Of a stretch of 64,000 bases of DNA, positions 1-54,392 are shown in pieces (within the stretch, counting starts at the first letter, position 1; each line of letters starts with the position of its first letter). The notes under the pieces were generated by a model that was given only the letters and a program-made list of their open reading frames with translations, had not been told where the DNA came from and did not search any database. Made by a program: the position numbers and the translations under genes. Origin of the DNA: Escherichia coli (lineage in GTDB: Bacteria > Pseudomonadota > Gammaproteobacteria > Enterobacterales > Enterobacteriaceae). The stretch lies in the NCBI RefSeq assembly GCF_013122565.1, contig NZ_CP053258.1. One strand, given 5' to 3'.

Positions 1-1202
1 CACATGGGCAAACCATCATACTCGGGATCCAGTCATACAATACCAGCGTGTTGGGTGGGATTGTGGCAGGGTTATTAGTCGCCAGCATGTATAAAAAGAT
101 CGTTAACTTACGTATTCCTGAATCATTAGGGTTTTATAGTGGCCCACGCCTGGTGCCTATCATTACACTGATTGTGATGAGTGGATTTGGTCTGATCATT
201 CCTTTTATCTGGCCGCCATTTTTCAATCTTTTCATGCTCATTGGTCACTGGATTTCAACTTCCGGTCCTGTTGGTTATTTCTTCTATGCTGTTGCCGAAC
301 GCGTGACGATACCTTTTGGCTTAAATCACTTGGTGACATCAGTTTTCCGCTTTACCCCAATCGGCGGATCGGCAGTGATTGGCGGTGAAGAGTATTACGG
401 CACCCTGAACATGTTTATGGCATACGTCAAAGAGAATGCGGTCATTCCGCTGGATTTGGCGGGGAAAATGGAGCAGGGCAAACTGATGATTCAGTATGGT
501 CTGGCTGGAGCCGCGCTGGCGATGTATCGCACTGCTCATGCTCAAAACAGAAGGGCTATCAAAGCATTGCTGATTTCCGGTGTGCTCACGGTAATTATTG
601 GCGGCGTCAGCGAGCCGATTGAATTTCTGTTCTTATTTGTCAGCCCGCTGTTGTTTGTCTTCCATGCCTTTATGAATGGATTGGCTAACATGGTTCTGCC
701 ATATATGGGCGTGAAGATGGGCTTTACTGGCGATCTGATTCAATTTATTAGCTTTGGTGTCTTACGTGGCACAAGAACGGGATGGCCATTAGCGGTATGT
801 GTTGAAGTGGCTTATTTCTTCATTTATTACTTTGTGTTCCGTTGGACCATTCTCAAATTTAACCTGATGACTGTAGGCCGTGAAGAGTCCAGTCCTGTCA
901 CGCTGAACGCTCACGAAGAAACTGCAATAGCTAACATCCCAGTTCATGATAAATCAGAGTTGCAGGCAGCGGAGCAAATGGTTAAGGCTCTGGGTGGTAA
1001 AGAAAATATTAAATCACTGGATAATTGTGTAACTCGTTTGCGTTTAACTATCGCGGATATGGGATTGATAGATGAGGCTGCAATAAAAAGGGCCGGAGGA
1101 ATTGCGGTTGTGAAACTTGATCAAAATACCTTACAAGTCATTATCGGTACAAAAGTCATCGCACTACGTCGGGATATGGATAACTACATGGGGATATGTT
1201 GA
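1..1202 (+). CDS. PTS glucose/maltose-family EIICB component (MalX/PtsG-like), N-terminally truncated by window edge
   Basis: Frame is open from position 3 with no stop before ORF 48..1202. EIIC-like motif GVSEPIEF and a C-terminal EIIB segment with the Cys motif NCVTRLR. Directly followed by a MalY-like gene, as in malXY. Confidence 0.85.
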   Translation, partial: HGQTIILGIQSYNTSVLGGIVAGLLVASMYKKIVNLRIPESLGFYSGPRLVPIITLIVMSGFGLIIPFIWPPFFNLFMLIGHWISTSGPVGYFFYAVAERVTIPFGLNHLVTSVFRFTPIGGSAVIGGEEYYGTLNMFMAYVKENAVIPLDLAGKMEQGKLMIQYGLAGAALAMYRTAHAQNRRAIKALLISGVLTVIIGGVSEPIEFLFLFVSPLLFVFHAFMNGLANMVLPYMGVKMGFTGDLIQFISFGVLRGTRTGWPLAVCVEVAYFFIYYFVFRWTILKFNLMTVGREESSPVTLNAHEETAIANIPVHDKSELQAAEQMVKALGGKENIKSLDNCVTRLRLTIADMGLIDEAAIKRAGGIAVVKLDQNTLQVIIGTKVIALRRDMDNYMGIC

Positions 1203-2410
1203 TGGATATTTTTAATACCTCAATTTCTCGTAAAGGAACATATTGCACACAATGGGACTTTTGTGAAGACAGATTTGGTGTAAAAGATGTATTACCATTC
1301 TCTATTTCAGATATGGATCTTCCGATACCGGAAGCTATCATCAGAACATTAAAAAAACGTCTGGAACACCCGATTTTAGGGTACAGTCGTTGGCAGCATG
1401 ATGACTATCTGAATTCGATAGTCAATTGGTATCATCAACAATATAAAACAGAGATTCAACCAGAATGGATCACCTATAGCCCAAGCGTGATGTATTCAAT
1501 ATCTAAGGCAATAGAAATATTGACATTGAATGGAGATAATATTCTCATTTTCACGCCTGTTTATAACGCATTTTATGATGTGATTAAGCATAATGGTCGA
1601 AACATGCTAACAACCTCTTTGATGAAAGAAAATGGGAGAGGCTACGTTATCAACTGGCAAGACTTTGAGCTTAAAATTAAAAGCGCGAAGATGGTGTTAT
1701 TATGTAATCCTCATAACCCGACAGGAACGGTCTGGTCGGAAGACGATCTTCACAGAATCGCAGCATGCTGTGCAAGGCATAATATTTGGTTATGTTCAGA
1801 TGAAATACATAGTGATTTTGTTTTTAATCATAGTTTCACGTCAGCGCTAACAATAAAAGATGACAAAGTGGTGGTGTTTAATTCGATTTCGAAAACATTT
1901 AATGTTCCTGCGCTAACCGGATCATATATGATTTCAACTGACGATAATTTTAATCATAAGTTCAGAACGATATCGAGGTATCGCGATTTTGTAAACTCCC
2001 CATCAGTACTGAATGTAATTGCGACCATTGTTGCCTATAATGAATGTGAAGAATGGTTAAAGTCATTAAAGGTACATATTGCCTCTAACATTCAATTTAC
2101 CTTGCAGTATTTAAATGAAAATATTCCGGAATTGATCGTATGGCCAGCTGAGGGCTGCTATTTTTCGTGGGTTGATTGCTCGGCCCTTGGTTATCCCTTT
2201 GATAAATTTTACCGTCGATTAATTAACGAAGGGAGAGTAGGTATTATGGCGGGGCATGTTTATGGTACTGAAGGAGAGGGCTATCTGCGTCTTAATCTGG
2301 CCTGCAGTCGAGAAAAATTATATATGGGGCTTGCGCGCCTTGCGAGTGTAATTAAAAATATTAATCAGGAAAAAGAAAATGAACAATACGGATCTTATCC
2401 ATCTTATTAA
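1196..2410 (+). CDS. PLP-dependent C-S lyase / aminotransferase, MalY/PatB family
   Basis: 404 aa. Collinear with K-12 MalY from memory: CTQWD, LPFSISDMD, LLCNPHNPTG, SDEIH, FNVPALTG. Start overlaps the PTS stop. Confidence 0.85.
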   Translation: MLMDIFNTSISRKGTYCTQWDFCEDRFGVKDVLPFSISDMDLPIPEAIIRTLKKRLEHPILGYSRWQHDDYLNSIVNWYHQQYKTEIQPEWITYSPSVMYSISKAIEILTLNGDNILIFTPVYNAFYDVIKHNGRNMLTTSLMKENGRGYVINWQDFELKIKSAKMVLLCNPHNPTGTVWSEDDLHRIAACCARHNIWLCSDEIHSDFVFNHSFTSALTIKDDKVVVFNSISKTFNVPALTGSYMISTDDNFNHKFRTISRYRDFVNSPSVLNVIATIVAYNECEEWLKSLKVHIASNIQFTLQYLNENIPELIVWPAEGCYFSWVDCSALGYPFDKFYRRLINEGRVGIMAGHVYGTEGEGYLRLNLACSREKLYMGLARLASVIKNINQEKENEQYGSYPSY

Positions 2411-2975
2411 ACATTTTATGCGTAACGAACATAAAGCAGTAGAAGAGGTTATTGATTCCCCCCTTTCGGAAGTCGCGAATTTAATTAAAATATTACAATC
2501 TTGCCAGGGAAAAGTTGTTTTTATTGGTGTTGGGAAATCTGGCATTATTGCCAGAAAACTTGCTGCAACATTTGCCAGCACCGGAACTCCCTCGTTTTTT
2601 GTTCACGGTACGGAAGCGGTACACGGCGACCTTGGGATGGTGGCGAAAGACGATGTTGTTATTCTTATTTCAAACAGTGGTGAGACGGCGGAAATCCTGG
2701 CGACACTGCCTAGTTTGAAAAAAATGGGTAATTATTTGATCTCTTTTACCCGCAGTCATCACTCATCGCTTGCGATAAGTTGTGATTTATCTGTTGAAAT
2801 CCCCGTCAAAAGTGAGGCGGATAATTTAGGTTTAGCACCGTCATGCTCGTCTACTGTTGTTCTGGTTGTTGGTGATGCGGTGGCGCTTGCACTCTCTGAA
2901 TTGAAAAAATTTACTCGTGCTGATTTCGGCTTATATCATCCAGGAGGTGCACTCGGCATTAAAGCAAATTCATAA
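2379..2975 (+). CDS. Single-SIS-domain sugar-phosphate isomerase (arabinose-5-phosphate isomerase-like, no CBS domains)
   Basis: 198 aa. Matches the KdsD/GutQ N-terminal SIS domain: GVGKSG, ATFASTGTPSFFVH, HGDLGMV, ISNSGET, HPGGALG. Lacks the C-terminal CBS pair. Confidence 0.8.
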   Translation: MNNTDLIHLIKHFMRNEHKAVEEVIDSPLSEVANLIKILQSCQGKVVFIGVGKSGIIARKLAATFASTGTPSFFVHGTEAVHGDLGMVAKDDVVILISNSGETAEILATLPSLKKMGNYLISFTRSHHSSLAISCDLSVEIPVKSEADNLGLAPSCSSTVVLVVGDAVALALSELKKFTRADFGLYHPGGALGIKANS

Positions 2976-3037
2976 TTTCAAAGTATAAATACAGTAACCG
3001 GTCACGCCATCTTTTGGGGTGGCGTTCATTGAAGTGA

Positions 3038-3994
3038 GTGTCAGCTATGAAAAATGTTCTGGTCACCGTCCCCAGCTTTTCAGCACGCTGTGTTTCCGCC
3101 AGCAAGTTGCTAAGAGAGAATAATTTTAACCTTATTATTAAGAATAATGTGGAGCATCTGCTTAAATCAGAATCCACTGCATTACGAGAATCTATTTGCG
3201 CGGTCATCGCCGGAAAAGATTGTTACCAGGCGGACACGCTATCATTGCTGCCTGGTGTGAGAATAATATCGAGATTCGGGACGGGGATAGATAATATTGA
3301 TCTTCGTGCAGCACAACAATCCGGTATTGTAGTCAATAATGCGGTTGGGATTAATTCAAATGCTGTCGCGGAATTTATCATTGGACTTATCTTCGCGAGC
3401 ATGAGAAATATTCCTGGCAGCTATCATGCGATGCAAAATGGCTACTGGGGTGAGTCGCATGGCTATGAATTACAAGGCAAACGGATTGGCCTGGTTGGCT
3501 ACGGCAATATAGGTAAAACCCTGGCAAAAAGGTTATCCGGTTTTGATGTTGAGCTTTTAGCTTATGACAAACAACCCGATTATCAGGTTGCTGACAAAGT
3601 TGGAGTTCAGTTTGTATCAATTGAAGATATCTTTATGCAGTCGCATGTCATCATTGTTCTTTTGCCTTTTTCTCCTGAGCTGGAGAACTTCATTAGTCAT
3701 AAATATTTGTCGATGATGCGCAATGGTGCTCTAATCATCAATGCCGCAAGGGGAAAGTTGCTGGATGAGGGCGCTTTACTACAGGTGATTGAAGAACGAA
3801 ATGTGTTTGCGGCGCTGGATGTGTTTAGCTCTGAACCGTTGGCGCAATTTAGCCCACTGCTACATGCCAAAAATATCATTACAACGCCGCATATTGCGGC
3901 CGCCACCGTTGAGTCATACCAGCAAACCGGTACACACGTTGCCCAGTCGATAATTGATTACTTCGCAGGAAGGGAGATAAAAAACGTGTTGTGA
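3038..3994 (+). CDS. D-isomer-specific 2-hydroxyacid dehydrogenase, NAD-binding
   Basis: 318 aa. Rossmann GxGxxG (GLVGYGNIGKTLAKRL) and the TPHIAAAT catalytic-region motif. Track start is GTG at 3038; an ATG at 3047 is an alternative. Confidence 0.8.
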   Translation: MSAMKNVLVTVPSFSARCVSASKLLRENNFNLIIKNNVEHLLKSESTALRESICAVIAGKDCYQADTLSLLPGVRIISRFGTGIDNIDLRAAQQSGIVVNNAVGINSNAVAEFIIGLIFASMRNIPGSYHAMQNGYWGESHGYELQGKRIGLVGYGNIGKTLAKRLSGFDVELLAYDKQPDYQVADKVGVQFVSIEDIFMQSHVIIVLLPFSPELENFISHKYLSMMRNGALIINAARGKLLDEGALLQVIEERNVFAALDVFSSEPLAQFSPLLHAKNIITTPHIAAATVESYQQTGTHVAQSIIDYFAGREIKNVL

Positions 3995-4020
3995 GTTCAG
4001 CGAACGAAGTTTTTAAATAC

Positions 4021-4055
4021 AAAAAAACCGCAATTTGTGGAACACATTGCGGTTT
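4021..4055 (-). terminator. Rho-independent terminator downstream of tRNA-fMet
   Basis: Inverted repeat aaaccgcaat / attgcggttt; on the minus strand it is followed by a 7-T run. Lies just past the tRNA 3' end. Confidence 0.6.
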
Positions 4056-4072
4056 ATCAGCATTCTAAGTAT

Positions 4073-4149
<77 letters not shown>

Positions 4150-4357
4150 TCCGTGGATGCGCACTATACTCCGCTCGCGTTTTCATGCAACCTTTTTTTT
4201 ACCCCGATCACGGTTCTGGCATGATTTTGAACAAAAACAAATCACTAAAGCCTATTTTTTGTGCAAAATTTGCGTCAGGGAGAGGCTGCTCATTTCATTA
4301 AACGCGGCGGTTTGTTATCTTCGTTGCGCCTTATTTTTTAACCTGAAGAAGAGAACA

Positions 4358-5455
4358 ATGAAAGGACGTTGGGTAAAGTACCTTCTTATGGGCACGGTTG
4401 TGGCAATGCTTGCCGCCTGCTCTTCCAAACCAACCGATCGCGGACAGCAATATAAAGACGGGAAATTTACCCAGCCTTTCTCTCTGGTGAACCAGCCAGA
4501 TGCCGTTGGCGCGCCGATTAACGCCGGTGATTTTGCTGAGCAAATTAACCATATCCGTAATTCGTCACCGCGTCTGTATGGCAACCAGAGTAATGTTTAT
4601 AACGCGGTGCAAGAGTGGCTGCGCGCAGGCGGTGATACCCGCAATATGCGCCAGTTCGGCATTGATGCCTGGCAGATGGAAGGTGCCGACAACTATGGTA
4701 ACGTGCAGTTTACAGGCTATTACACGCCGGTAATTCAGGCGCGCCATACCCGCCAGGGCGAGTTCCAGTATCCGATTTACCGTATGCCGCCAAAACGTGG
4801 TCGTCTGCCGTCTCGTGCGGAGATCTACGCGGGGGCATTGAGCGATAAATACATCCTCGCTTACAGCAACTCTCTGATGGATAATTTCATTATGGATGTG
4901 CAGGGTAGTGGGTATATCGACTTTGGTGATGGCAGCCCCCTTAACTTTTTCAGCTATGCAGGGAAAAACGGTCATGCCTATCGCAGCATTGGTAAGGTGC
5001 TGATCGACCGTGGCGAAGTGAAAAAAGAAGATATGTCGATGCAAGCGATTCGTCACTGGGGCGAAACACACAGTGAAGCCGAGGTTCGCGAGCTGCTGGA
5101 ACAGAACCCGTCTTTTGTCTTCTTTAAACCGCAATCTTTTGCACCGGTGAAAGGGGCAAGTGCGGTGCCGCTGGTTGGTCGTGCTTCTGTTGCCTCTGAT
5201 CGTTCCATTATTCCGCCAGGTACTACCTTGCTGGCAGAAGTGCCGTTACTGGATAATAACGGCAAATTTAATGGTCAGTACGAACTGCGTCTGATGGTGG
5301 CGCTGGATGTCGGTGGCGCAATCAAAGGCCAACACTTCGATATCTATCAAGGGATCGGGCCGGAAGCCGGACACCGTGCAGGTTGGTACAACCACTATGG
5401 ACGGGTTTGGGTACTGAAAACGGCTCCGGGCGCAGGTAACGTCTTTAGCGGCTGA
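4358..5455 (+). CDS. mltA: Membrane-bound lytic murein transglycosylase A
   Basis: Internal ATG of ORF 4037..5455 with SD aagaagaga. Lipoprotein signal MKGRWVKYLLMGTVVAMLAACSS. 365 aa as in K-12. The longer track ORF overlaps the tRNA and is rejected. Confidence 0.93.
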   Translation: MKGRWVKYLLMGTVVAMLAACSSKPTDRGQQYKDGKFTQPFSLVNQPDAVGAPINAGDFAEQINHIRNSSPRLYGNQSNVYNAVQEWLRAGGDTRNMRQFGIDAWQMEGADNYGNVQFTGYYTPVIQARHTRQGEFQYPIYRMPPKRGRLPSRAEIYAGALSDKYILAYSNSLMDNFIMDVQGSGYIDFGDGSPLNFFSYAGKNGHAYRSIGKVLIDRGEVKKEDMSMQAIRHWGETHSEAEVRELLEQNPSFVFFKPQSFAPVKGASAVPLVGRASVASDRSIIPPGTTLLAEVPLLDNNGKFNGQYELRLMVALDVGGAIKGQHFDIYQGIGPEAGHRAGWYNHYGRVWVLKTAPGAGNVFSG

Positions 5456-5542: not shown

Positions 5543-5641
5543 TGCCGGATGCGGCGTGAACGCCTTATCCGGCCTACAAATCATGCAAATCCAAAATATT
5601 GCAGGAGTTATGTAGGCCTGATAAGCGTAGCGCATCAGGCA
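5543..5641. repeat. REP/BIME palindromic elements (two REP units)
   Basis: gccggatgcggcgtgaacgccttatccggcctaca and tgtaggcctgataagcgtagcgcatcaggca, typical enterobacterial REP consensus. Confidence 0.8.
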
Positions 5642-6994: not shown

Positions 6995-8199
6995 TAATCC
7001 ACCAATAATTCCAGCGCGCGGTCAACGGCATTCACCAGCGCATCCACATCACTCTTTGTATTATATGGCGCAAAAGAGGCGCGCAGAGTGCCGGTTACGC
7101 CTAATTCTGCCAGTAGCGGCTGAGCGCAATGCTGCCCGGCCCGCAGGGCAATACCGTACTCCGCCAGCAGCGTCACCATATCGCTGTGATGAACACCCGC
7201 GAAATCAAAGGCCAGCAGGCTGGAATCCTGGCAGCGGAATGAGCGGAAGCCAGGACGTTTTGCCAGCGCATCTTCCGCCAGCGTTGCTAAGCTACGGCTC
7301 CAGCTTTCGGCCTGGTTGATATCGTAATCTGCCAGCCATTCCAGCGCCGCGCTTAATCCTATGACACCAGCGACATTTGGCGTTCCGGCTTCCAGTTTCC
7401 ACGGCGCAGATTGAGTCGTGAAGCCGTCAAAACTCACTTCGTGAACCATTTTGCCACCGCCCAGCCAGGGCGACATCGCTTCCAGCAGTTCTGGTTTGCC
7501 ATACAGCACGCCGATACCTGTCGGGCCATACAGTTTGTGACCTGAAAAAGCATAGAAATCAATATCCAGTTGCTGAACATCCGCGGGGAAATGCACCGCC
7601 CCCTGAGCACCATCAACCATCACTACCATCCCGGCTGAATGAGCAAAGGTAATCGCTCGCGCCAGATCCGGGCAACCGCCAGTAACGTTCGACATCTGAC
7701 CCAACGCCAGAATCCGACTACGGGGAGTAATCAGTTCTGGCAACAAATCGACATCCGGCAGTCGCTGCGCATTAAGCGGCAATTTCACCACTTTGGCTCC
7801 AGTTTGTTGGGCGACCATCAGCCAGGGAACGAGGTTAGCGTGATGCTCTGCCACGCTGACAATAATCTCATCGCCCGGTTGCAGACGCGGACGCGCATAG
7901 CATTGTGCCACCATGTTGATGGATTCAGTGGTGCCGCGCGTCCAGACGATATTTTTGTCATACGATGCATTCAGTAATTGTGCCACTTTTTCCCGCGCAG
8001 CTTCATAACGCGCGGTCAGGCGTTGGGCTTCGGCAAACTGGCTGCGATGGACGTTTCCGGCGCTCAGGCTGTAAAACTGTCGGGTGGCTTCAACCACGGC
8101 TTCAGGTTTAAGCGCGGTCGCGGCGCTGTCGAGATAGACGCCCGCATCCTGTAGTGCGGGAAACTGGGCGCGAAACTGCGCGGGATTAAAAACGTTCAT
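6994..8199 (-). CDS. csdA: Cysteine sulfinate desulfinase / cysteine desulfurase CsdA
   Basis: Internal start [17 protein letters not shown] with SD gaggag. 401 aa, PLP class-V aminotransferase. The track ORF carries a 12-codon 5' extension. Confidence 0.93.
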
Positions 8200-8390
8200 G
8201 GTACTCCTCGGCTTGATGCACCGATCGTGACGCAAAATTCACTTTGATACAAGGATAGTGCTAACCATCAGAATTATCTGGATATCCTGGCGAAGCCGCG
8301 TAAGTAACATATGCTGAATAGTGTTAGGCATTAATTTTAGCCTGTTAATCAATACTATTAAGATTTATTAATCGCTTTAAGGAGAAGATG

Positions 8391-8618
8391 ATGAAAAAGA
8401 CTGCCGCAATTATTTCTGCCTGTATGCTGACTTTTGCCCTGAGCGCCTGTTCCGGTTCAAACTATGTGATGCACACCAATGACGGACGTACCATCGTCTC
8501 TGACGGCAAACCACAGACTGATAACGATACCGGTATGATTTCGTATAAAGACGCTAATGGCAACAAACAGCAGATCAACCGTACTGACGTGAAAGAGATG
8601 GTCGAACTGGATCAGTAA
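8391..8618 (+). CDS. ygdI: Small lipoprotein YgdI (DUF903)
   Basis: 75 aa from the second ATG. Lipobox LSAC. SD ggag 6 nt upstream. Confidence 0.9.
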
Positions 8619-8634
8619 TTCGCGATCGCAAGGT

Positions 8635-8840
8635 AAAAAAAAGCACCGCAATTAGGCGGTGCTACATTAATCACTATGGACAGACAGGGTAAATGTACAG
8701 GAAGTGAAAAAAGGTAGCTTTGCTACCATGGTCTGAATCGCAGACCAATTGCAAACACAACAACACAACATCACAACCGTAAGCCAAAAGTTCACCAGAA
8801 CACGCATTCCGATAAAACTTTTCGTTCCGGCTCAGGAAGT
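8635..8840 (-). ncRNA. gcvB: GcvB small regulatory RNA
   Basis: Reverse complement reads ACTTCCTGAGCCGGAACGAAAAGTTTTATCGGAATGCGTGTTCTGGTGAACTTTTGGCTTACGGTTGTGATGTTGTGTTGTTGTGTTTGC..., ending in the hairpin GCACCGCCTAATTGCGGTGC plus T8. Includes the GU-rich R1 region. Divergent from gcvA as in K-12. About 206 nt. Confidence 0.92.
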
Positions 8841-8968
8841 GCCGCCACTATAGGTATTTGCTGGTAGAAGCTCAACGGACAATTTATAATGGCTCAGATT
8901 AAAAAAACTAATAGGTTACACAGTGTGATCTAATTGTTAAATTCATTTAACATCAAAGTTTAAAAGCC

Positions 8969-9886
8969 ATGTCTAAACGATTACCACCGCTAAATGCCTT
9001 ACGAGTTTTTGATGCCGCAGCACGCCATTTAAGTTTCACTCGCGCAGCAGAAGAGCTTTTTGTGACCCAGGCCGCAGTAAGTCATCAAATCAAGTCTCTT
9101 GAGGATTTTCTGGGGCTAAAACTGTTCCGCCGCCGTAATCGTTCACTCCTGTTGACCGAGGAAGGTCAAAGCTATTTCCTCGATATCAAAGAGATATTTT
9201 CGCAATTAACCGAAGCGACGCGTAAACTCCAGGCCCGTAGCGCCAAGGGGGCGTTGACGGTCAGTTTACTCCCTAGTTTTGCCATTCATTGGTTGGTTCC
9301 GCGACTTTCCAGCTTTAATTCAGCTTATCCGGGAATTGACGTTCGAATCCAGGCGGTTGATCGTCAGGAAGATAAGCTGGCGGATGATGTTGATGTGGCG
9401 ATATTTTATGGTCGGGGCAACTGGCCGGGGCTACGGGTGGAAAAACTGTACGCCGAATATTTATTGCCGGTGTGTTCGCCTCTACTGCTGACTGGCGAAA
9501 AACCCTTGAAGACCCCGGAAGATCTGGCTAAACATACGCTATTACATGATGCGTCACGCCGTGACTGGCAGACATATACCCGACAATTGGGGTTAAATCA
9601 TATCAACGTTCAGCAAGGGCCAATTTTTAGCCATAGCGCCATGGTGCTGCAAGCGGCTATCCACGGGCAGGGAGTGGCGCTGGCAAATAACGTGATGGCG
9701 CAATCTGAAATTGAAGCCGGACGTCTTGTTTGCCCGTTTAATGATGTTCTGGTCAGTAAAAACGCTTTTTATCTGGTTTGTCATGACAGCCAGGCAGAAC
9801 TGGGTAAAATAGCCGCCTTTCGCCAATGGATCCTGGCGAAAGCCGCTGCTGAACAAGAAAAATTCCGCTTTCGTTATGAACAATAA
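8969..9886 (+). CDS. gcvA: LysR-family glycine cleavage system regulator GcvA
   Basis: 305 aa, LysR HTH N-terminus. Synteny with gcvB. Confidence 0.95.
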   Translation: MSKRLPPLNALRVFDAAARHLSFTRAAEELFVTQAAVSHQIKSLEDFLGLKLFRRRNRSLLLTEEGQSYFLDIKEIFSQLTEATRKLQARSAKGALTVSLLPSFAIHWLVPRLSSFNSAYPGIDVRIQAVDRQEDKLADDVDVAIFYGRGNWPGLRVEKLYAEYLLPVCSPLLLTGEKPLKTPEDLAKHTLLHDASRRDWQTYTRQLGLNHINVQQGPIFSHSAMVLQAAIHGQGVALANNVMAQSEIEAGRLVCPFNDVLVSKNAFYLVCHDSQAELGKIAAFRQWILAKAAAEQEKFRFRYEQ

Positions 9887-9904
9887 TTTACGTAGGGTAC
9901 GACC

Positions 9905-10300
9905 ATGACCAGCCGTTTTATGCTGATTTTCGCCGCCATTAGCGGCTTCATTTTTGTGGCTCTGGGCGCTTTTGGCGCGCATGTGTTAAGTAAAACCATG
10001 GGGGCCGTTGAGATGGGCTGGATCCAGACCGGCCTCGAATACCAGGCGTTTCATACGCTGGCGATCTTAGGTCTGGCGGTGGCAATGCAGCGTCGCATCA
10101 GTATCTGGTTTTACTGGAGTAGCGTTTTCCTCGCGTTAGGCACGGTGCTGTTCAGCGGCAGCCTTTATTGCCTGGCACTGTCCCATCTGCGTTTGTGGGC
10201 GTTTGTCACTCCGGTTGGCGGCGTGAGCTTCCTTGCGGGCTGGGCGTTAATGTTAGTTGGTGCTATCCGTTTAAAGCGCAAGGGCGTAAGTCATGAATAA
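9905..10300 (+). CDS. ygdD: DUF423 inner membrane protein YgdD
   Basis: 131 aa, hydrophobic. Synteny. Confidence 0.9.
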
Positions 10301-11393
10301 GGTTGTATTGCTGTGCCGTCCGGGCTTTGAAAAAGAGTGCGCCGCAGAAATTACCGATAAAGCCGGCCAGCGGGAAATTTTCGGTTTTGCCCGCGTGAAA
10401 GAGAATGCGGGTTATGTCATTTATGAATGTTATCAACCTGATGATGGCGATAAGTTAATCCGTGAGCTGCCGTTCAGTTCATTAATTTTTGCCCGCCAGT
10501 GGTTTGTGGTGGGGGAACTCCTGCAGCATTTGCCGCCAGAAGATCGTATTACCCCCATTGTCGGCATGTTGCAGGGCGTAGTAGAGAAGGGCGGTGAACT
10601 GCGTGTTGAAGTTGCCGATACCAACGAAAGCAAAGAGTTGCTGAAATTCTGCCGTAAATTCACTGTTCCGCTACGCGCTGCCTTGCGCGATGTCGGGGTG
10701 CTGGCGAACTATGAAACGCCGAAGCGTCCGGTTGTGCATGTATTCTTTATTGCACCAGGCTGCTGCTATACCGGTTACTCATACAGCAACAATAATTCGC
10801 CGTTCTATATGGGCATTCCGCGCCTGAAATTTCCGGCAGATGCGCCGAGTCGTTCCACGCTCAAACTGGAAGAGGCATTTCATGTGTTTATTCCTGCGGA
10901 TGAGTGGGATGAACGCCTGGCGAACGGGATGTGGGCGGTGGATTTAGGCGCTTGCCCTGGCGGCTGGACCTACCAACTGGTGAAGCGCAACATGTGGGTT
11001 TATTCCGTCGACAACGGCCCGATGGCGCAAAGTCTGATGGATACCGGGCAGGTGACGTGGCTGCGGGAAGATGGTTTCAAATTCCGTCCGACACGCAGCA
11101 ATATCTCCTGGATGGTATGCGATATGGTTGAAAAACCGGCGAAAGTTGCGGCATTGATGGCGCAGTGGCTGGTTAATGGCTGGTGCCGTGAAACCATTTT
11201 CAACCTCAAACTGCCGATGAAAAAACGCTACGAAGAAGTATCACACAATCTGGCGTATATTCAGGCACAGCTTGATGAACATGGCATAAATGCTCAGATT
11301 CAGGCGCGGCAGTTGTATCACGATCGCGAAGAAGTGACGGTGCACGTCCGCCGCATCTGGGCTGCGGTGGGTGGTCGTCGCGACGAGCGATAA
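10293..11393 (+). CDS. rlmM: 23S rRNA 2'-O-ribose C2498 methyltransferase RlmM
   Basis: 366 aa. Synteny. Confidence 0.92.
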
Positions 11394-11436
11394 CAGGCAA
11401 GGCCGGGGCGTCGTCTCCGGCCTGCTACCCTTTCCG

Positions 11437-12168
11437 TCAGGCTGTTACCAAAGAAGTTGCAACCTGGCGCTCATCAGAAATAATGTGCGTTACCTCATCC
11501 AGATGCCCGATGCGGGCTTCCCCTGAACGATTAAATTTACTTTTATCAATCAATAACAACGATTGCGCGGCACGTTTTAATAGCATCGATTTGTAATCAG
11601 CGTTGATGGCATTGGAGTCCCACAGTGCGCCGCTGCTATCGATCCCTTCACAAGAAAAAATAAACAGATCGATTTCCAGCGATTTAAGTTGGGAAATCAG
11701 CGAGGGATTGACGTAACAGCCATATTTGCGCTCAAGTGTGCCGCCGGAACTGATCAGTTGAATGCGTTCGCGTTTACCGAGTTCATGGCAAATCGGATGG
11801 CTATTGGTGAAGACCAGAATGTTGATGTCAGGCAACTGGCGTGCCAGATACCAGCAGGTTGAACTGGCGTCTAAGGCTATTACCATCCCTTCTTCAATCC
11901 ATGCGAGCGCCTCGCGCGCGATATCTGCTTTATGCGCATAATGGCTTTTCAGCCGGATGTGAAAGGGATCGCCACTGTCTTGATTTTGACGGTGGATATA
12001 TTTAGCGCGCCCATGATTGCGCAGAATTTTACCCTGCGTCTGTAATTCATTGAGATCGCGACGAATGGTTTCTTTACTGACCTTTAGCTGTTCAGAGAGA
12101 GCTTCCGTGGTCAGGCTGGTATGGTTCAGCAGCAGGTCGACTATCGCTTGCTGGCGTGCCGCTTTCAT
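11437..12168 (-). CDS. fucR: DeoR-family L-fucose operon activator FucR
   Basis: 243 aa from the internal ATG (MKAARQQAIVDLL). The track ORF is 3 codons longer. Confidence 0.93.
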   Translation of the reverse strand: MKAARQQAIVDLLLNHTSLTTEALSEQLKVSKETIRRDLNELQTQGKILRNHGRAKYIHRQNQDSGDPFHIRLKSHYAHKADIAREALAWIEEGMVIALDASSTCWYLARQLPDINILVFTNSHPICHELGKRERIQLISSGGTLERKYGCYVNPSLISQLKSLEIDLFIFSCEGIDSSGALWDSNAINADYKSMLLKRAAQSLLLIDKSKFNRSGEARIGHLDEVTHIISDERQVATSLVTA

Positions 12169-18522: not shown

Positions 18523-19671
18523 ATGGCTAACAGAATGATTCTGAACGAAACGGCATGGTTTGGTCGGGGTGCTGTTGGGGCTTTAACCGATGAGGTGAAA
18601 CGCCGTGGTTATCAGAAGGCGCTGATCGTCACCGATAAAACGCTGGTGCAATGCGGCGTGGTGGCGAAAGTGACCGATAAGATGGATGCTGCAGGGCTGG
18701 CATGGGCGATTTACGACGGCGTAGTGCCCAACCCAACAATTACTGTCGTCAAAGAAGGGCTCGGTGTATTCCAGAATAGCGGCGCGGATTACCTGATCGC
18801 TATTGGTGGTGGTTCTCCACAGGATACTTGTAAAGCGATTGGCATTATCAGCAACAACCCGGAGTTTGCCGATGTGCGTAGCCTGGAAGGACTTTCCCCG
18901 ACCAATAAATCTAGTGTACCGATTCTGGCAATCCCCACCACAGCAGGCACTGCGGCAGAAGTGACCATTAACTACGTGATCACTGACGAAGAAAAACGGC
19001 GCAAGTTTGTTTGCGTTGATCCGCATGATATCCCGCAGGTGGCGTTTATTGACGCTGACATGATGGATGGTATGCCTCCAGCGCTGAAAGCTGCGACGGG
19101 TGTCGATGCGCTCACTCATGCTATTGAGGGGTATATTACCCGTGGCGCGTGGGCGCTAACCGATGCGCTGCACATTAAAGCCATTGAAATCATTGCTGGG
19201 GCGCTGCGAGGATCGGTTGCTGGTGATAAGGATGCCGGAGAAGAAATGGCGCTCGGGCAGTATGTTGCGGGTATGGGCTTCTCGAATGTTGGGTTAGGGT
19301 TGGTGCATGGTATGGCGCATCCACTGGGCGCGTTTTATAACACTCCACACGGTGTTGCGAACGCCATCCTGCTACCGCATGTTATGCGTTATAACGCTGA
19401 CTTTACCGGTGAGAAGTACCGCGATATCGCGCGCGTTATGGGCGTGAAAGTGGAAGGTATGAGCCTGGAAGAGGCGCGTAATGCCGCTGTTGAAGCGGTG
19501 TTTGCTCTCAACCGTGATGTCGGTATTCCGCCACATTTGCGTGATGTTGGTGTACGCAAGGAAGACATTCCGGCACTGGCGCAGGCGGCACTGGATGATG
19601 TTTGTACCGGTGGCAACCCGCGTGAAGCAACGCTTGAGGATATTGTAGAGCTTTACCATACCGCCTGGTAA
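18523..19671 (+). CDS. fucO: L-1,2-propanediol oxidoreductase (lactaldehyde reductase) FucO
   Basis: Fe-dependent alcohol dehydrogenase family. 382 aa from the second ATG; the track start is 18520. Confidence 0.93.
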   Translation: MANRMILNETAWFGRGAVGALTDEVKRRGYQKALIVTDKTLVQCGVVAKVTDKMDAAGLAWAIYDGVVPNPTITVVKEGLGVFQNSGADYLIAIGGGSPQDTCKAIGIISNNPEFADVRSLEGLSPTNKSSVPILAIPTTAGTAAEVTINYVITDEEKRRKFVCVDPHDIPQVAFIDADMMDGMPPALKAATGVDALTHAIEGYITRGAWALTDALHIKAIEIIAGALRGSVAGDKDAGEEMALGQYVAGMGFSNVGLGLVHGMAHPLGAFYNTPHGVANAILLPHVMRYNADFTGEKYRDIARVMGVKVEGMSLEEARNAAVEAVFALNRDVGIPPHLRDVGVRKEDIPALAQAALDDVCTGGNPREATLEDIVELYHTAW

Positions 19672-27011: not shown

Positions 27012-27377
27012 GTCGACAGGGAGTCAGACAACGAAGTGAACATCAGGATGATGACACTTCTGAAGGACACACCAGGATGGTGTTTCAGGGAAAGGCTTCT
27101 GGATGAAGCGAAGAGGATGACGCAGGACGCGTTAAAGGACACCTCCAGGATGGAGAATGAGAACCGGTCAGGATGATCCGGTGGGTCAGGAAGGCCAGGG
27201 ACACTTCAGGATGAAGTATCACATCGGGGTGGTGTGAGCAGGAAGCAATAGTTCAGGATGAACGATTGGCCGCAAGGCCAGAGGAAAAGTTGTCAAGGAT
27301 GAGCAGGGAGCAACAAAAGTAGCTGGAATGCTGCGAAACGAACCGGGAGCACTGTGAATACAGTGCTCCCTTTTTTT
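27012..27377 (+). ncRNA. csrB: CsrB sRNA (CsrA-sequestering)
   Basis: About 366 nt with roughly 18 GGA-containing motifs (caggatg, aaggaca, caggaag). Ends in hairpin gggagcactgtgaatacagtgctccc plus T7. Sits between syd and yqcC as in K-12. The 5' end is approximate, +/-5 nt. Confidence 0.92.
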
Positions 27378-27422
27378 ATTCCTGCTATCCTTCGCGGCAG
27401 TTTTTCTTATTGAGGTTGCTTT

Positions 27423-37884: not shown

Positions 37885-40119
37885 ATGGTTGCGGTAAGAA
37901 GTGCACATATCAATAAGGCTGGTGAATTTGATCCGGAAAAATGGATCGCAAGTCTGGGTATTACCAGCCAGAAGTCGTGTGAGTGCTTAGCCGAAACCTG
38001 GGCGTATTGTCTGCAACAGACGCAGGGGCATCCGGATGCCAGTCTGTTATTGTGGCGTGGTGTTGAGATGGTGGAGATCCTCTCGACATTAAGTATGGAC
38101 ATTGACACGCTGCGGGCGGCGCTGCTTTTCCCTCTGGCGGATGCCAACGTAGTCAGCGAAGATGTGCTGCGTGAGAGCGTCGGTAAGTCGGTCGTTAACC
38201 TTATTCACGGCGTGCGTGATATGGCGGCGATCCGCCAGCTGAAAGCGACGCACACTGATTCTGTTTCCTCCGAACAGGTCGATAACGTTCGCCGGATGTT
38301 ATTGGCGATGGTCGATGATTTTCGCTGCGTGGTCATCAAACTGGCGGAGCGTATTGCTCATCTGCGTGAAGTAAAAGATGCGCCGGAAGATGAACGCGTA
38401 CTGGCGGCAAAAGAGTGCACCAATATCTACGCGCCGTTGGCAAACCGTCTTGGGATTGGGCAACTGAAATGGGAGCTGGAAGATTACTGCTTCCGTTATC
38501 TCCACCCGACCGAATACAAACGCATCGCAAAACTGTTGCATGAACGCCGTCTCGACCGCGAACACTATATCGAAGAGTTTGTCGGTCATCTGCGCGCTGA
38601 GATGAAAGCTGAAGGCGTTAAAGCTGAAGTGTATGGTCGTCCGAAACACATCTACAGCATCTGGCGCAAAATGCAGAAAAAGAACCTCGCCTTCGATGAG
38701 CTGTTTGATGTGCGTGCGGTACGTATTGTCGCCGAGCGTTTACAGGATTGTTATGCCGCACTGGGGATAGTGCACACTCACTATCGCCACCTGCCGGATG
38801 AGTTTGACGATTATGTCGCTAACCCGAAACCAAACGGTTATCAGTCTATTCATACCGTGGTTCTGGGGCCGGGTGGAAAAACCGTTGAGATCCAAATCCG
38901 CACCAAACAGATGCATGAAGATGCAGAGTTGGGTGTTGCTGCGCACTGGAAATATAAAGAGGGCGCGGCAGCTGGCGGCGCACGTTCGGGACATGAAGAC
39001 CGGATTGCCTGGCTGCGTAAACTGATTGCGTGGCAGGAAGAGATGGCTGATTCCGGCGAAATGCTCGACGAAGTACGTAGTCAGGTCTTTGACGACCGGG
39101 TGTACGTCTTTACGCCGAAAGGTGATGTCGTTGATTTGCCTGCGGGATCAACGCCGCTGGACTTCGCTTACCACATCCACAGTGATGTCGGACACCGCTG
39201 CATCGGGGCAAAAATTGGCGGGCGCATTGTGCCGTTCACCTACCAGCTGCAGATGGGCGACCAGATTGAAATTATCACCCAGAAACAGCCGAACCCCAGC
39301 CGTGACTGGTTAAACCCAAACCTCGGTTACGTCACAACCAGCCGTGGGCGTTCGAAAATTCACGCCTGGTTCCGTAAACAGGACCGTGACAAAAACATTC
39401 TGGCTGGGCGGCAAATCCTTGACGACGAGCTGGAACATCTGGGGATCAGCCTGAAAGAAGCAGAAAAACATCTGCTGCCGCGTTACAACTTCAATGATGT
39501 CGACGAGTTGCTGGCGGCGATTGGTGGAGGGGATATCCGTCTCAATCAGATGGTAAACTTCCTGCAATCGCAATTTAATAAGCCGAGTGCCGAAGAGCAG
39601 GACGCCGCCGCGCTGAAGCAACTTCAGCAAAAAAGCTACACGCCGCAAAACCGCAGTAAAGATAACGGTCGTGTGGTGGTTGAAGGTGTCGGTAACCTGA
39701 TGCACCACATCGCGCGCTGCTGCCAGCCGATTCCTGGAGATGAGATTGTCGGCTTCATTACCCAGGGACGCGGTATTTCAGTACACCGCGCCGATTGCGA
39801 ACAACTGGCGGAACTGCGCTCCCATGCGCCAGAACGCATTGTTGACGCGGTATGGGGCGAGAGCTACTCCGCCGGATATTCGCTGGTGGTCCGCGTGGTG
39901 GCTAATGATCGTAGTGGGTTGTTACGTGATATCACGACCATTCTCGCCAATGAGAAAGTGAACGTGCTTGGCGTTGCCAGCCGTAGCGACACCAAACAGC
40001 AACTGGCGACCATCGACATGACCATTGAGATTTACAACCTGCAAGTGCTGGGTCGCGTGCTGGGTAAACTCAACCAGGTGCCGGATGTTATCGACGCGCG
40101 TCGGTTGCACGGGAGTTAG
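37885..40119 (+). CDS. relA: GTP pyrophosphokinase RelA ((p)ppGpp synthetase I)
   Basis: 744 aa. Confidence 0.95.
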   Translation: MVAVRSAHINKAGEFDPEKWIASLGITSQKSCECLAETWAYCLQQTQGHPDASLLLWRGVEMVEILSTLSMDIDTLRAALLFPLADANVVSEDVLRESVGKSVVNLIHGVRDMAAIRQLKATHTDSVSSEQVDNVRRMLLAMVDDFRCVVIKLAERIAHLREVKDAPEDERVLAAKECTNIYAPLANRLGIGQLKWELEDYCFRYLHPTEYKRIAKLLHERRLDREHYIEEFVGHLRAEMKAEGVKAEVYGRPKHIYSIWRKMQKKNLAFDELFDVRAVRIVAERLQDCYAALGIVHTHYRHLPDEFDDYVANPKPNGYQSIHTVVLGPGGKTVEIQIRTKQMHEDAELGVAAHWKYKEGAAAGGARSGHEDRIAWLRKLIAWQEEMADSGEMLDEVRSQVFDDRVYVFTPKGDVVDLPAGSTPLDFAYHIHSDVGHRCIGAKIGGRIVPFTYQLQMGDQIEIITQKQPNPSRDWLNPNLGYVTTSRGRSKIHAWFRKQDRDKNILAGRQILDDELEHLGISLKEAEKHLLPRYNFNDVDELLAAIGGGDIRLNQMVNFLQSQFNKPSAEEQDAAALKQLQQKSYTPQNRSKDNGRVVVEGVGNLMHHIARCCQPIPGDEIVGFITQGRGISVHRADCEQLAELRSHAPERIVDAVWGESYSAGYSLVVRVVANDRSGLLRDITTILANEKVNVLGVASRSDTKQQLATIDMTIEIYNLQVLGRVLGKLNQVPDVIDARRLHGS

Positions 40120-40128
40120 TCTTACATA

Positions 40129-40165
40129 GCTGGATATGGCGTCAGCCGTATCCAGCGATATCTTT
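40129..40165 (+). terminator. Hairpin downstream of relA
   Basis: gctggata-N12-tatccagc followed by a T-rich stretch. Weak terminator or processing structure. Confidence 0.4.
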
Positions 40166-40214
40166 TACTCGAAGGTATTACACCTGACAGATCCGCAATT
40201 TTCAGGACAATTCA

Positions 40215-46490: not shown

Positions 46491-46702
46491 GAGTTCCCCG
46501 CGCCAGCGGGGATAAACCGGCGATTATAGCGGACTTTCAAGAGAACAGTCTGAGTTCCCCGCGCCAGCGGGGATAAACCGTGGAAAATCACCGACAATAT
46601 TCGACATGGAGAGAGTTCCCCGCGCCAGCGAGGATAAACCGTTATCGGTCATCAACTATAGCGCGTATTTACTAAGTTCCCCGTTCCAACACGAATAATC
46701 CG
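46491..46702 (+). CRISPR. Type I-E CRISPR mini-array (CRISPR2-like): 3 intact repeats, 1 degenerate terminal repeat, 3 spacers of 32 bp
   Basis: Repeats gagttccccgcgccagcggggataaaccg at 46491, 46552 and 46613 (third has one mismatch). Degenerate repeat 46674..46702. Phase confirmed by the antisense artefact ORF 46379..46597. Confidence 0.95.
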
Positions 46703-46767
46703 ATAATATCGACGATACCAACCTAATATTATCAAATGTTAAAGGTTCTAATTTAAGAGGAAATTTA

Positions 46768-47031
46768 ATGTCTACGTTAATGGAAAAAGAATCTCTCCTG
46801 AATGGCGTGAGTCAAAATATTGCATTTTTATCAAATGTATCTGAAATGGTTTACAACTCTCAGAATGAAGAGTTGCAGTATGAAATATATGAGCTGGTGA
46901 GTTATAAAGATTATCTATACTCAACAGACCATGAACTTGTTGATTTTCAAGAGGGAGTATTACGATTTCAACAAATTAGAACAAAATACAGGCAAGAGCT
47001 AAAAGAACTCGGTTATCCTGTAGGTAATTAA
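46768..47031 (+). CDS. Hypothetical protein (87 aa, acidic, AT-rich codon usage)
   Basis: Intact ORF with SD aagagg 9 nt upstream. No homolog I recognise. Occupies the position where K-12 has ygcE..ygcN. Confidence 0.5.
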   Translation: MSTLMEKESLLNGVSQNIAFLSNVSEMVYNSQNEELQYEIYELVSYKDYLYSTDHELVDFQEGVLRFQQIRTKYRQELKELGYPVGN

Positions 47032-47393
47032 GAAATATTGTCTTGATGGTGGGGAAACGTAATTTTTTATATTTTAAATATTAGATTAAAACAATAAATT
47101 AATATCATACTTTTATTTTATTCTCGAAAATGCCTAATTTCATTAAATACGTTGTCCTGTAAATGTAAACCGGGCATTTTTCCGCCCGGTCTCCCTCGAT
47201 TACGCTTCTGAGCAGGTCTCGAGCGAATTCACACTCTCCCGTTCAACTTGCATCACCAGTTGGTTAAATTCAGTCAAACTCTCGCTCATAATAATAATGT
47301 CGCAGTCGTCTTCCATGTCATGCCCCAGATATCCAGAACACAACACCCTAACATAGCGTTACTTAAGGGAAATTGACCGCCGACACACTCTTA

Positions 47394-52394: not shown

Positions 52395-52658
52395 ATATTG
52401 CCGGATAAATTAAACGCCTCTGTCAGAAATGATGGGGGCGTTTTTATTTTGCGAGCAGCATTCCTGATTTTAAACGTGAACGCCGCTGGAAGAATTATCA
52501 GGTATAGAATGGCGTCGGGTGCTTGAGGCTGTCTGGCGTTAAGCATTCGCGAGGTTCCAGATGGACAAAAGCCCCAGGCGATATTTCTATCAACCTGAGG
52601 CTTACGTTCGAACCCAAACAATTCGAATGTTAGTCTCTTCTTTGCAGGGAGGCAAGAC

Positions 52659-52811
52659 ATGCTGACAAAATATGCCCTTGTGGCAATCATCGTACTGTGT
52701 TGTACAGTACTGGGATTCACGCTGATGGTAGGCGACTCGTTGTGTGAGTTGAGTATCAGAGAACGTGGTATGGAGTTTAAGGCAGTTCTCGCTTACGAAT
52801 CGAAGAAGTAG
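52659..52811 (+). CDS. Hok/Gef-family type I toxin (50 aa; below ORF-track cutoff)
   Basis: Translates to [50 protein letters not shown]. One TM helix and a conserved C-terminal SLCE...AYES.K block as in plasmid R1 Hok (from memory). SD agggagg 7 nt upstream. An overlapping upstream 34-codon ORF (52561..52665) ends 7 nt into hok, like a mok reading frame. Confidence 0.8.
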
Positions 52812-53048: not shown

Positions 53049-54392
53049 GTGACTTTCTTTGATTTCTGGGGAAAAACCCGACGTGGCGAGAAAGAAGGGG
53101 GCGACGGCTATCACCTTCTTTGCTGGCATTCGCTGGATGTGGCCGCGATGGGCTATTTAATGGTTAAAAGAAATTGCTTCGGGCTGGCTGACTATTTTCG
53201 TCAATTAGGGATTTCTGACAAGGAACAGGCAGCTCAATTTTTCGCCTGGTTGCTGTGCTGGCACGATATTGGAAAATTTGCCCGCTCTTTTCAACAACTT
53301 TACCTGCCCCCTGAATTCAAGATTCAGGAAGGTGCCAGAAAAAATTACGAAAAAATCTCTCATTCAACGCTGGGCTACTGGTTGTGGAATCATTATTTAA
53401 GTGAATGTCAGGAGTTACTTCCTTCATCTTCGCTCTCTCCGCGCAAACTTAGGCGAGTGATAGAAATGTGGATGCCCGTGACGACAGGGCATCATGGTCG
53501 GCCCCCTGATCGTATGGATGAATTGGATAATTTTCTGCCTGAAGACAAAGCTGCAGCACGAGATTTTCTCCTTGAAATCAAACCACTGTTTCCGCTCATA
53601 GAGATCCCCGCATTCTGGGATGATGATGAGGGCATTGAACTTATAAAACACCTTTCCTGGTATATCTCTGCAACCGTCGTGCTCGCAGACTGGACGGGTT
53701 CGTCAACGCGATTTTTTCCACGCGTCGCACACCCAATGGATATTAAAGGTTACTGGCAGAAAACTTTAGTTCAGGCTCAAAATGCCTTAACCGTCTTTCC
53801 TCTAAAAGCAAAAGTCGCGCCTTTCACCGGAATTAATACGCTGTTTCCTTTTATTGAGAATCCGACACCGTTACAGCAAAAGGTGCTGGATCTGGATATC
53901 AGCCAGCCAGGGCCACAGTTATTTATTCTGGAAGATGTGACTGGCGCAGGTAAAACGGAAGCGGCGCTTATCCTGGCGCACAGGTTGATGGCTGCGGGTA
54001 AAGCGCAGGGTTTGTTTTTTGGCCTGCCAACAATGGCAACGGCCAATGCCATGTATGATCGGCTCGTCAAAACCTGGCTTTCTTTCTATTCGCCAGAATC
54101 TCGCCCCAGCCTGGTGCTGGCACACAGTGCCCGCACATTAATGGACCGCTTTAATGAATCACTCTGGTCCGGTGATTTAATCGGGTCAGAAGAACCGGAT
54201 GAACAAGCTTTCAGCCAGGGTTGTGCGGCCTGGTTTGCCGACAGTAACAAGAAGGCGTTGCTGGCTGAAATTGGCGTCGGCACCCTGGATCAGGCGATGA
54301 TGGCAGTGATGCCGTTTAAACATAATAATCTGCGGCTTCTGGGGCTGAGTAACAAAATCGTGTTCCCCGCGCCAGCGGGGATAAACCGATGA
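53049..54392 (+). pseudogene. cas3: Truncated cas3 (type I-E; HD nuclease domain and start of helicase domain only), fused to the CRISPR array
   Basis: 447-aa ORF with a GTG start. HD motif WHDIGKF and Walker A TGAGKTEAA. Collinear with the N-terminal half of K-12 Cas3 (888 aa, from memory). The frame runs through CRISPR repeat 1 (...NKIV|FPAPAGINR) and stops in spacer 1. Confidence 0.88.

Follow-up and report, generated by a model that had tools for sequence, protein, structure and literature searches.

A phosphotransferase operon of the CFT073 c3405-c3409 type beside tRNA-fMet in Escherichia coli, and related gene modules in Firmicutes

Gene content and identity of the operon

The first 4,072 bp of a 64,000-nucleotide stretch of Escherichia coli DNA (contig NZ_CP053258.1; the whole stretch is termed the window) carry four genes of an accessory phosphotransferase system (PTS) operon that ends next to a tRNA-fMet gene. 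These include: (i) the 3' part of a gene for a PTS enzyme IICB (EIICB; 1..1202, + strand), which is open at the window edge and has its stop codon at 1200-1202, (ii) a gene for a MalY/PatB-family pyridoxal phosphate (PLP)-dependent C-S lyase of 402 residues (1202-2410, + strand), (iii) a gene for a single-SIS-domain sugar-phosphate isomerase of 198 residues, without a CBS pair (2379-2975, + strand), and (iv) a gene for an NAD-dependent D-2-hydroxyacid dehydrogenase of 315 residues (3047-3994, + strand; alternative GTG start at 3038). The PTS open reading frame (ORF) corresponds to residues 128-526 of a 526-residue EIICB, its 5' part being cut by the window edge, and includes the EIIB motif NCVTRLR, while the PLP-lysine motif of the lyase (SISKTFN) is at residues 228-234. 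All four ORFs are co-directional and intact, with catalytic motifs. The lyase start overlaps the PTS stop (TGATG), the lyase and SIS genes overlap by 32 nt, and 71 bp separate the SIS stop from the dehydrogenase gene; the two overlaps are operon signals of translational coupling. The segment is bounded on the right by one copy of tRNA-fMet (anticodon CAU; 4073-4149, - strand), the 3' end of which faces the cluster across a gap of exactly 78 bp from the dehydrogenase stop, and the coordinates and gene calls of an earlier reading made from the letters of the window (the sequence-only reading), four co-directional genes ending 78 bp before the tRNA 3' end, are correct.

The EIICB, examined at full length from a relative that is 99.6% identical, has the EIIC and EIIB domains (PF02378 and PF00367). 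It scores best against the MalX models, yet remains under their cut-offs (TIGR02004, 537.7 vs 632.2 bits; NF007509, 522.1 vs 665 bits), and is 42% identical to MalX of E. coli K-12; among solved structures, glucose EIICB chains are the nearest to it. The lyase is above the PatB subfamily cut-off (TIGR04350, 368.5 vs 340 bits), is 37% identical to K-12 MalY and has MalY (1D2F) and a Clostridioides difficile protein (4DGT) as its best PDB matches. The family assignments behind the earlier description of a malX/malY-like pair hold at these levels of identity, K-12 MalX and MalY being the nearest E. coli paralogues of the two proteins. The malX-malY pair of K-12 (the MalI regulon) likewise consists of a Glc-family EIICB gene followed directly by a PatB/MalY C-S lyase gene, but is controlled by the LacI-type repressor MalI instead of an antiterminator of the kind predicted for the present operon and is without the SIS isomerase and the dehydrogenase; the two pairs are distant paralogues. 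The dehydrogenase resembles the short phosphoglycerate dehydrogenases (PGDH) and glyoxylate reductases by profile, in agreement with its first assignment as a D-2-hydroxyacid dehydrogenase, and is under every equivalog cut-off.

Matches of the SIS protein to KdsD, GutQ and KpsF are confined to their SIS half (KdsD equivalog, 197 vs 505 bits), and both profile matches and alignment support its description as a 198-residue KdsD/GutQ-type SIS domain free of CBS domains. It shares with these enzymes the same set of K, H, E, E and H residues and the GxGKSG and SNSGE loops, but KdsD, GutQ and KpsF are 321-328 residues in length with a CBS pair. The protein stops 5 residues after HPGGALG, at the point where KdsD continues into its CBS pair. 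The residues K53, H82, E105, E146 and H187, which do not vary among the 11 single-SIS proteins in an alignment with KdsD, correspond to KdsD K59, H88, E111, E152 and H193, the catalytic residues of that enzyme. A truncated KdsD pseudogene was also considered as the origin of this protein and is ruled out, as the single-SIS length (196-208 residues, ending about 5 residues past HPGGxLG) is kept across Enterobacteriaceae and Firmicutes and no CBS remnant is found 3' of the SIS protein when aligned with KdsD. Similarly to gutQ, the gene is of the arabinose-5-phosphate isomerase (API) type and is embedded in a PTS operon.

The region is almost certainly the distal 4.07 kb of a known five-gene operon, c3405-c3409 of E. 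coli CFT073. CFT073 has these genes in unchanged order right behind amiC, a PRD-domain gene coming first, and amino acid identity to the window is 98% for the PTS protein, 85% for the lyase, 98% for the SIS protein and 97% for the dehydrogenase. The same terminator and spacer follow the dehydrogenase gene in both. Gene order, locus and 85-98% identity agree with the earlier proposal that this may be the island that carries c3406 or a related one. The SIS protein of CFT073 is identical to the chain of PDB 5UQI/5VHU, and that of the window has the same residue at 194 of 198 positions, the four exceptions (R15H, H18L, V32F and I38V) being N-terminal. The two loci differ in that the lyase allele of the window is 85% identical and 11 residues longer, a type VI secretion system (T6SS) module separates the operon from the tRNA in CFT073 and not in the window, and CFT073 has three tRNA-fMet genes compared to one.

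The genes c3405-c3410 are described as a colinear set in PAI-CFT073-metV (Bryant et al., PMC2831201), the only relevant match in a full-text literature search for c3405-c3409. An arabinose-5-phosphate (A5P) isomerase activity of c3406 is indicated by the title of Mosberg et al. (2011, J Bacteriol 193:2981) and by secondary mentions, and a secondary source places c3406 in the context of lipopolysaccharide (LPS) precursors; a study of this protein was mentioned in the sequence-only reading, and its existence is confirmed by reference lists. The SIS protein of the window, with 194 of 198 residues shared with the crystallized CFT073 protein, is a putative A5P/ribulose-5-phosphate (Ru5P) isomerase. 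The CAT+PRD protein of CFT073 is probably PafR, since no second regulator of this kind is annotated in the stretch from the tRNAs to amiC of that genome, and it is of the LicT/GlcT/BglG type. In secondary sources, PafR is an antiterminator-type regulator on the metV island that is expressed in vivo but not in urine; these sources also report that a pafR mutant is attenuated and that PafR is needed for full virulence in a mouse model of urinary tract infection. The operon is linked by PafR and the metV island to the fitness of uropathogenic E. coli.

For genome annotation, the operon is an already known and routine accessory locus. To this are added here its presence as a small, non-mobile segment that is independent of the T6SS module and found well beyond uropathogens, a divergent lyase allele, and orthology to C. 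difficile CD3027-CD3031.

Regulation, conservation across phyla and proposed function

The first gene of the operon, which is outside the window, encodes in relatives a CAT+PRD protein that scores best against LicT, GlcT and BglG. In strain ISHS7, a sequence resembling a ribonucleic antiterminator (RAT) overlaps a strong terminator just upstream of the antiterminator start codon, again outside the window; this RAT was recognized by eye, against LicT/SacY RAT sequences, and not by a model. An Rfam scan of 1-4072 and of the ISHS7 antiterminator leader returned zero RNA families. The arrangement in the relatives is like that of the bgl, lic and sac systems (BglG-BglF, LicT, SacY), with a CAT+PRD antiterminator beside an EIICB and a RAT-like element over a leader terminator. 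Unlike these systems, a PLP lyase and a sugar-phosphate isomerase stand where the gene for a phospho-glycosidase or sucrase would be.

Outside Enterobacteriaceae, the closest relatives of the SIS protein are Firmicute single-SIS proteins (52-60% identical) and those of the lyase are clostridial. C. difficile 630 CD3031-CD3027 encodes an antiterminator, a 'malX' EIIBC (CD3030, the ortholog of the window's EIICB), a 'malY' PatB-type lyase, an SIS protein (putative phosphosugar isomerase) and an EIIA-Glc. The first four of these stand in the same order as in E. coli, with protein identities of 68% (PTS), 50% (lyase), 52% (SIS) and 36% (antiterminator). The C. difficile version differs in that it has its own EIIA-Glc and is without the dehydrogenase, and in that a long leader lies between the antiterminator and PTS genes, whereas the leader of the E. 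coli version is upstream of the antiterminator gene. The core of antiterminator, EIICB, PatB-type lyase and single-SIS protein is, by sequence identity, orthologous to CD3031-CD3028 and to other Firmicute modules (PTS proteins 64-71% identical); the identity of the PTS protein and lyase to their C. difficile counterparts is far above that to E. coli's own MalX (42%) and MalY (37%). Given this orthology, work on either organism should inform the other. The C. difficile genes CD3031-CD3027 are co-regulated and have been described as one PTS operon, and C. difficile MalY has cysteine desulfhydrase activity in vitro, its gene being reported as essential, strongly induced in biofilms and tied to cysteine metabolism.

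The same four genes are found in Terrisporobacter mayombei, where genes for transketolase subunits follow, in Enterococcus termitis (PTS protein 71% identical) and at three further loci of metagenomes or metagenome-assembled genomes (MAGs), and the module was present in 7 of the 8 non-enterobacterial lyase or PTS homologs inspected. Around this core the gene content varies. The dehydrogenase is part of the Escherichia, Atlantibacter and Citrobacter versions and is missing from those of Enterobacter and Firmicutes, EIIA-Glc occurs only in some Firmicute versions (C. difficile, Terrisporobacter and one MAG), and transketolase occurs once. No extra enzyme (glycosidase, sulfatase or aldolase) consistently travels with the module in other phyla.

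Homologs of the SIS protein that are 51-57% identical also occur in two other conserved contexts, one in Mammaliicoccus and the other in lactobacilli and enterococci. In Mammaliicoccus lentus (7354-11854 of the extracted locus), a gene for an RbsD-type mutarotase is just upstream of genes for a LacI regulator, the SIS homolog, a PfkB kinase and a major facilitator superfamily transporter; this cluster may represent a kinase-based route for D-arabinose. In Lactiplantibacillus, Companilactobacillus and Enterococcus, the SIS homolog is found with a Gat-type PTS, genes resembling dihydrodipicolinate synthase and 2-keto-3-deoxy-6-phosphogluconate aldolase, and an Mga/PRD regulator; cleavage of a 3-deoxy-ulosonate phosphate, such as 3-deoxy-D-manno-octulosonate 8-phosphate (KDO-8-P), to pyruvate and A5P would fit this gene set.

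The operon is probably an inducible PTS catabolic operon. A possible mechanism would begin with PafR: while the cognate EIICB is occupied by substrate, PafR would allow read-through of the RAT-terminator leader that precedes its own gene. The MalX-like EIICB would import and phosphorylate a carbohydrate derivative, presumably via Crr in E. coli, where the operon is without an EIIA of its own, and via the dedicated EIIA-Glc in Firmicute versions such as those of C. difficile and Terrisporobacter. The PatB/MalY-type PLP enzyme would remove or convert an amino-acid-like moiety by beta-elimination or transamination, and the single-SIS enzyme would convert the resulting D-arabinose-5-phosphate to D-ribulose-5-phosphate for entry into the pentose-phosphate pathway. 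The 2-hydroxyacid dehydrogenase may be a lineage-specific addition that acts on a 2-oxo or 2-hydroxy acid by-product. An islet of the CFT073 c3405-c3409 type that operates in this manner is likely, and is the best overall explanation of the locus. The catabolic direction, A5P to Ru5P, is somewhat favored over supply of KDO because the module is conserved in bacteria that do not make KDO, an occurrence that points to catabolic use of A5P; the sugar-catabolic contexts of the other single-SIS homologs also count for a catabolic role. Any particular class of substrate (e.g., a sugar O- or S-linked to serine or cysteine, an amino-sugar acid or a 2-amino-aldonate) is speculative and at best doubtful. 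Equally tentative is the proposal that the four-gene core represents one conserved, cross-phylum and unassigned catabolic route, in which the PLP enzyme would cleave or transform a serine/cysteine-type or 2-amino-acid sugar phosphate to give A5P, for the isomerase to pass on to the pentose-phosphate pathway. If true, this route would give a first physiological rationale for the pairing of a PTS with a MalY-type lyase (malX-malY), and also for the presence of API genes where KDO is not made.

Several points weigh against this interpretation. We know of no pathway that makes A5P with a PatB-type enzyme. The MalY proteins of C. difficile and E. coli act as cysteine desulfhydrase/cystathionase in vitro, and a sugar need not be involved. 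The gutQ gene, which likewise encodes an API in a PTS operon, is dispensable for catabolism of the sugar concerned and has been given a regulatory role. The antiterminator gene and leader are outside the window, and in SBF45, the closest complete genome, the antiterminator gene is annotated as frameshifted (18767-19590 of the extracted locus); the gene is intact in ISHS7 and CFT073.

The main competing explanation, unlikely in our estimate, is that the proteins are co-regulated but form no linear route: a glucose/maltose-type EIICB, a MalY-like protein that acts as a cysteine desulfhydrase/cystathionase or regulates by binding another protein (as MalY does with MalT), and an isomerase that makes A5P as a signal (as proposed for GutQ). 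It draws on K-12 MalX and MalY as the nearest E. coli paralogues, on the desulfhydrase activity of MalY-type enzymes in vitro and the essential, cysteine-linked malY of C. difficile, and on the description of GutQ as regulatory in the sorbitol operon. The Firmicutes that conserve the module, however, are not known to have MalT, and a MalT-directed role would then not be ancestral. The tight synteny of four genes across phyla, accompanied by no other consistent catabolic enzyme, suggests instead that three proteins suffice for one task, and MalY-like::SIS fused ORFs on record also speak against proteins that merely share regulation. Such lyase::SIS fused ORFs, 550-592 residues in length, are present in some E. 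coli and Shigella records (P0122-P0127) and are either functional fusions or frameshift errors.

Less probable still is a biosynthetic role, in which the SIS protein would be an extra KdsD-like API that supplies A5P for the KDO of LPS or capsule during infection, with the PTS and lyase genes as incidental neighbors. In its favor, the protein has the KdsD active-site residues, the secondary source on c3406 refers to LPS precursors, and the API paralogues of E. coli are redundant for KDO supply. By contrast, the SIS gene still follows the PatB-type and EIICB genes in C. difficile, Terrisporobacter and Enterococcus, which are without KDO, and it overlaps or abuts the lyase gene. Also against this role, the operon is carried by 31% of E. 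coli genomes, among them isolates from the environment and from food as well as O111:H8.

Alleles, distribution and mobility at the amiC/tRNA-fMet locus

Compared to CFT073, dN/dS is 0.033 for the PTS gene, 0.136 for the lyase gene, 0.067 for the SIS gene and 0.159 for the dehydrogenase gene; all four window genes are under purifying selection, as measured against CFT073, the Atlantibacter values being unused (saturated, or mis-framed for the dehydrogenase). Synonymous divergence (dS) from CFT073 is 0.36 for the PTS gene and 0.49 for the lyase gene compared to 0.13 for the SIS gene and 0.09 for the dehydrogenase gene, with 0.15-0.21 for mltA and tcdA. Similarly, DNA identity to CFT073 is 80-95% over the PTS and lyase genes and 95-100% over the SIS and dehydrogenase genes. 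The locus is a recombination mosaic of high divergence at 1-2600 and low divergence at 2600-4000, with a breakpoint near 2600. Of the operon's proteins, the lyase evolves fastest in each comparison made (85% identical within E. coli, 65% to Atlantibacter). In the allele of the window, the lyase stop codon is lost through a 1-nt deletion and a substitution at 2370-2410, beside the A-rich tract GGAAAAAGAAAATG, which adds 13 residues and creates the 32-nt overlap with the SIS gene.

These changes bear on whether the operon is a decaying remnant, its genes heading for loss and without function in this strain. The frameshifted antiterminator gene of SBF45 and the lost stop codon of the lyase gene, the most divergent of the set, would fit decay; the four window ORFs are nonetheless full length with catalytic motifs, their dN/dS is 0.03-0.16 and the stop loss adds only 13 residues, which makes decay very improbable.

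In the E. coli K-12 strain MG1655, a spacer of 73 bp separates amiC from metV-metW-metZ, with mltA beyond these, as expected from the earlier placement of amiC beside the met-tRNA genes of K-12. In operon-bearing genomes, 5,566 bp stand in place of the spacer and fill the whole interval between the amiC stop and the tRNA 3' end. The window includes 4,072 bp of this segment (the 3' 73%). To the left, the closest relatives have a further ~1.5 kb comprised of the leader, the PRD antiterminator gene and the first 126 PTS codons, and relatives that are 99.6-99.7% identical to the window have amiC on the far side. All complete relatives that align over this part of the window also have the fifth gene, for the PRD antiterminator. 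Thus, the distal 4,072 bp of the island are in the window, as had been supposed, but the part that is missing at the left is just ~1.5 kb.

The lyase gene is found in 1,688 of 5,426 complete E. coli genomes (31%) and is missing from the other 69%, in agreement with the earlier expectation, made with K-12 in mind, that the cluster is accessory. Among the 1,688 carriers, 266 have the window's allele (at least 99% identical), 123 an allele at 90-95% and 1,299 one at 80-90% (the CFT073 type). The operon is directly against the tRNA-fMet gene, as in the window, in 596 genomes. The window's allele is also found in O111:H8 and in other clinical human, beef and water isolates, and the operon is not specific to uropathogens.

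Genomes of the CFT073 type have, after the operon and its terminator, the sequence TGGTTGCGGGGGCC, which equals the final 14 nt of the tRNA; then come the T6SS module and, beyond it, intact tRNAs. The 14-mer is at ~19499-19512 of the extracted locus in CFT073, at 24075 in L002 and at 7010 in strain C7. Strain C7 has no sugar operon and carries the same 14-mer and the same end of the T6SS module on a K-12-type spacer, and the T6SS junction (GGCC, then ACAGTCAAGAGG) is identical with or without the operon. The locus occurs in four states: neither module, operon only, operon and T6SS, and T6SS only. The "metV island" is therefore two independent modules, because the 14-mer-bounded T6SS module occurs with or without the sugar operon, and only the T6SS module has the look of a tRNA-targeted insertion. 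As the operon is separable from the T6SS module, phenotypes of whole-island deletions are not assignable to either part. In WP5-S18-ESBL-09, an IS21-family insertion is found between the operon and the T6SS module.

Escherichia whittamii and Atlantibacter hermannii likewise carry the operon at the amiC/tRNA-fMet locus. Its products in Atlantibacter are 65-85% identical to those of the window, with 83-93% for AmiC, MltA, ArgA and TcdA. This shared position, and a divergence of the Atlantibacter operon that is similar to or above that of the flanking core genes, are consistent with an operon long resident here and lost repeatedly, as opposed to one that uropathogens gained recently. In Citrobacter, the five genes are at another locus. 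The Enterobacter version, of four genes, lacks the dehydrogenase and in one case lies beside a fructose-PTS-type (fruBKA-like) cluster.

A check to the left for any integrase and for a direct repeat of the tRNA 3' end had been suggested, and neither is found in relatives. Between amiC and the tRNA, no integrase is annotated in SBF45, ISHS7 or NRZ95651, and complete relatives are free of transposases there as well. Copies of the tRNA 3' end that reach 9 nt are absent in and beside the segment, the longest match being 8 nt. The 73-bp spacer of K-12 shows no sign of being a deletion scar, as its best local alignment was matched or beaten by 26 of 200 shuffles. G+C content is 36-47% in the segment vs 51-57% in the flanks. 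A classical mobile pathogenicity island, integrase-borne and inserted at the metV 3' end with the window as its distal end, would account for the position against the tRNA 3' end, the low G+C content and the listing of the operon in 'PAI-CFT073-metV', but is the least credible of the explanations given that no integrase, transposase or tRNA repeat accompanies the segment in complete relatives, the 14-nt tRNA copy bounds only the T6SS module (which also inserts on the K-12-type spacer) and the Atlantibacter operon at the same locus has diverged as much as or more than its flanking core genes.

Other features of the window

Between the dehydrogenase gene and the tRNA is a bulged G+C hairpin followed by U7 on the - strand (4021..4056). 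Its folding energy is -19.7 kcal/mol (z -4.95) for the - strand and -16.0 kcal/mol (z -2.0) for the + strand, and it is assigned as the intrinsic terminator of the tRNA gene. The hairpin may also stop the operon on the + strand. A simple terminator scan of 3900-4400 was blind to this structure because of the bulge, and it was found by folding. The genes mltA, tcdA, csdE and csdA come after tRNA-fMet.

The number of tRNA-fMet genes at the locus varies. K-12, CFT073 and ISHS7 have three tandem copies (metZWV) while the window has only the one at 4073-4149; SBF45 also has one, and NRZ95651 has seven plus an IS1. The single copy of the window may be a real change in copy number by recombination between 110-bp repeats or a collapse in the assembly of the window.

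Further along the window, several segments are shorter than in the reference MB06171. At 40119-40173, the mazE-mazF toxin-antitoxin pair between relA and mazG is gone (~53 bp vs ~690 bp). At 46641-47288, ~650 bp stand in place of the 11.9 kb between queE and queD, which in MB06171 include a CRISPR array and the ygcE-yqcE-ygcWUSRQPON cluster. At 53049-56160, cas3 is truncated (an ORF of 447 residues vs ~899) and casA-cas2e (7.4 kb in the reference) is gone, while 54479-54876 and 56008-56159 still contain type I-E repeats (GTGTTCCCCGCGCCAGCGGGGATAAACCG); with cas3 truncated and casA-cas2e missing, the CRISPR arrays are orphaned.

RNA families detected by Rfam elsewhere in the window include ES036 (CssrF) in the mltA-tcdA spacer (5577-5619), GcvB (8635-8840), CsrB (27021-27380) and, downstream of cysH and beside a hok-type gene, the sok antitoxin RNA (52517-52674).

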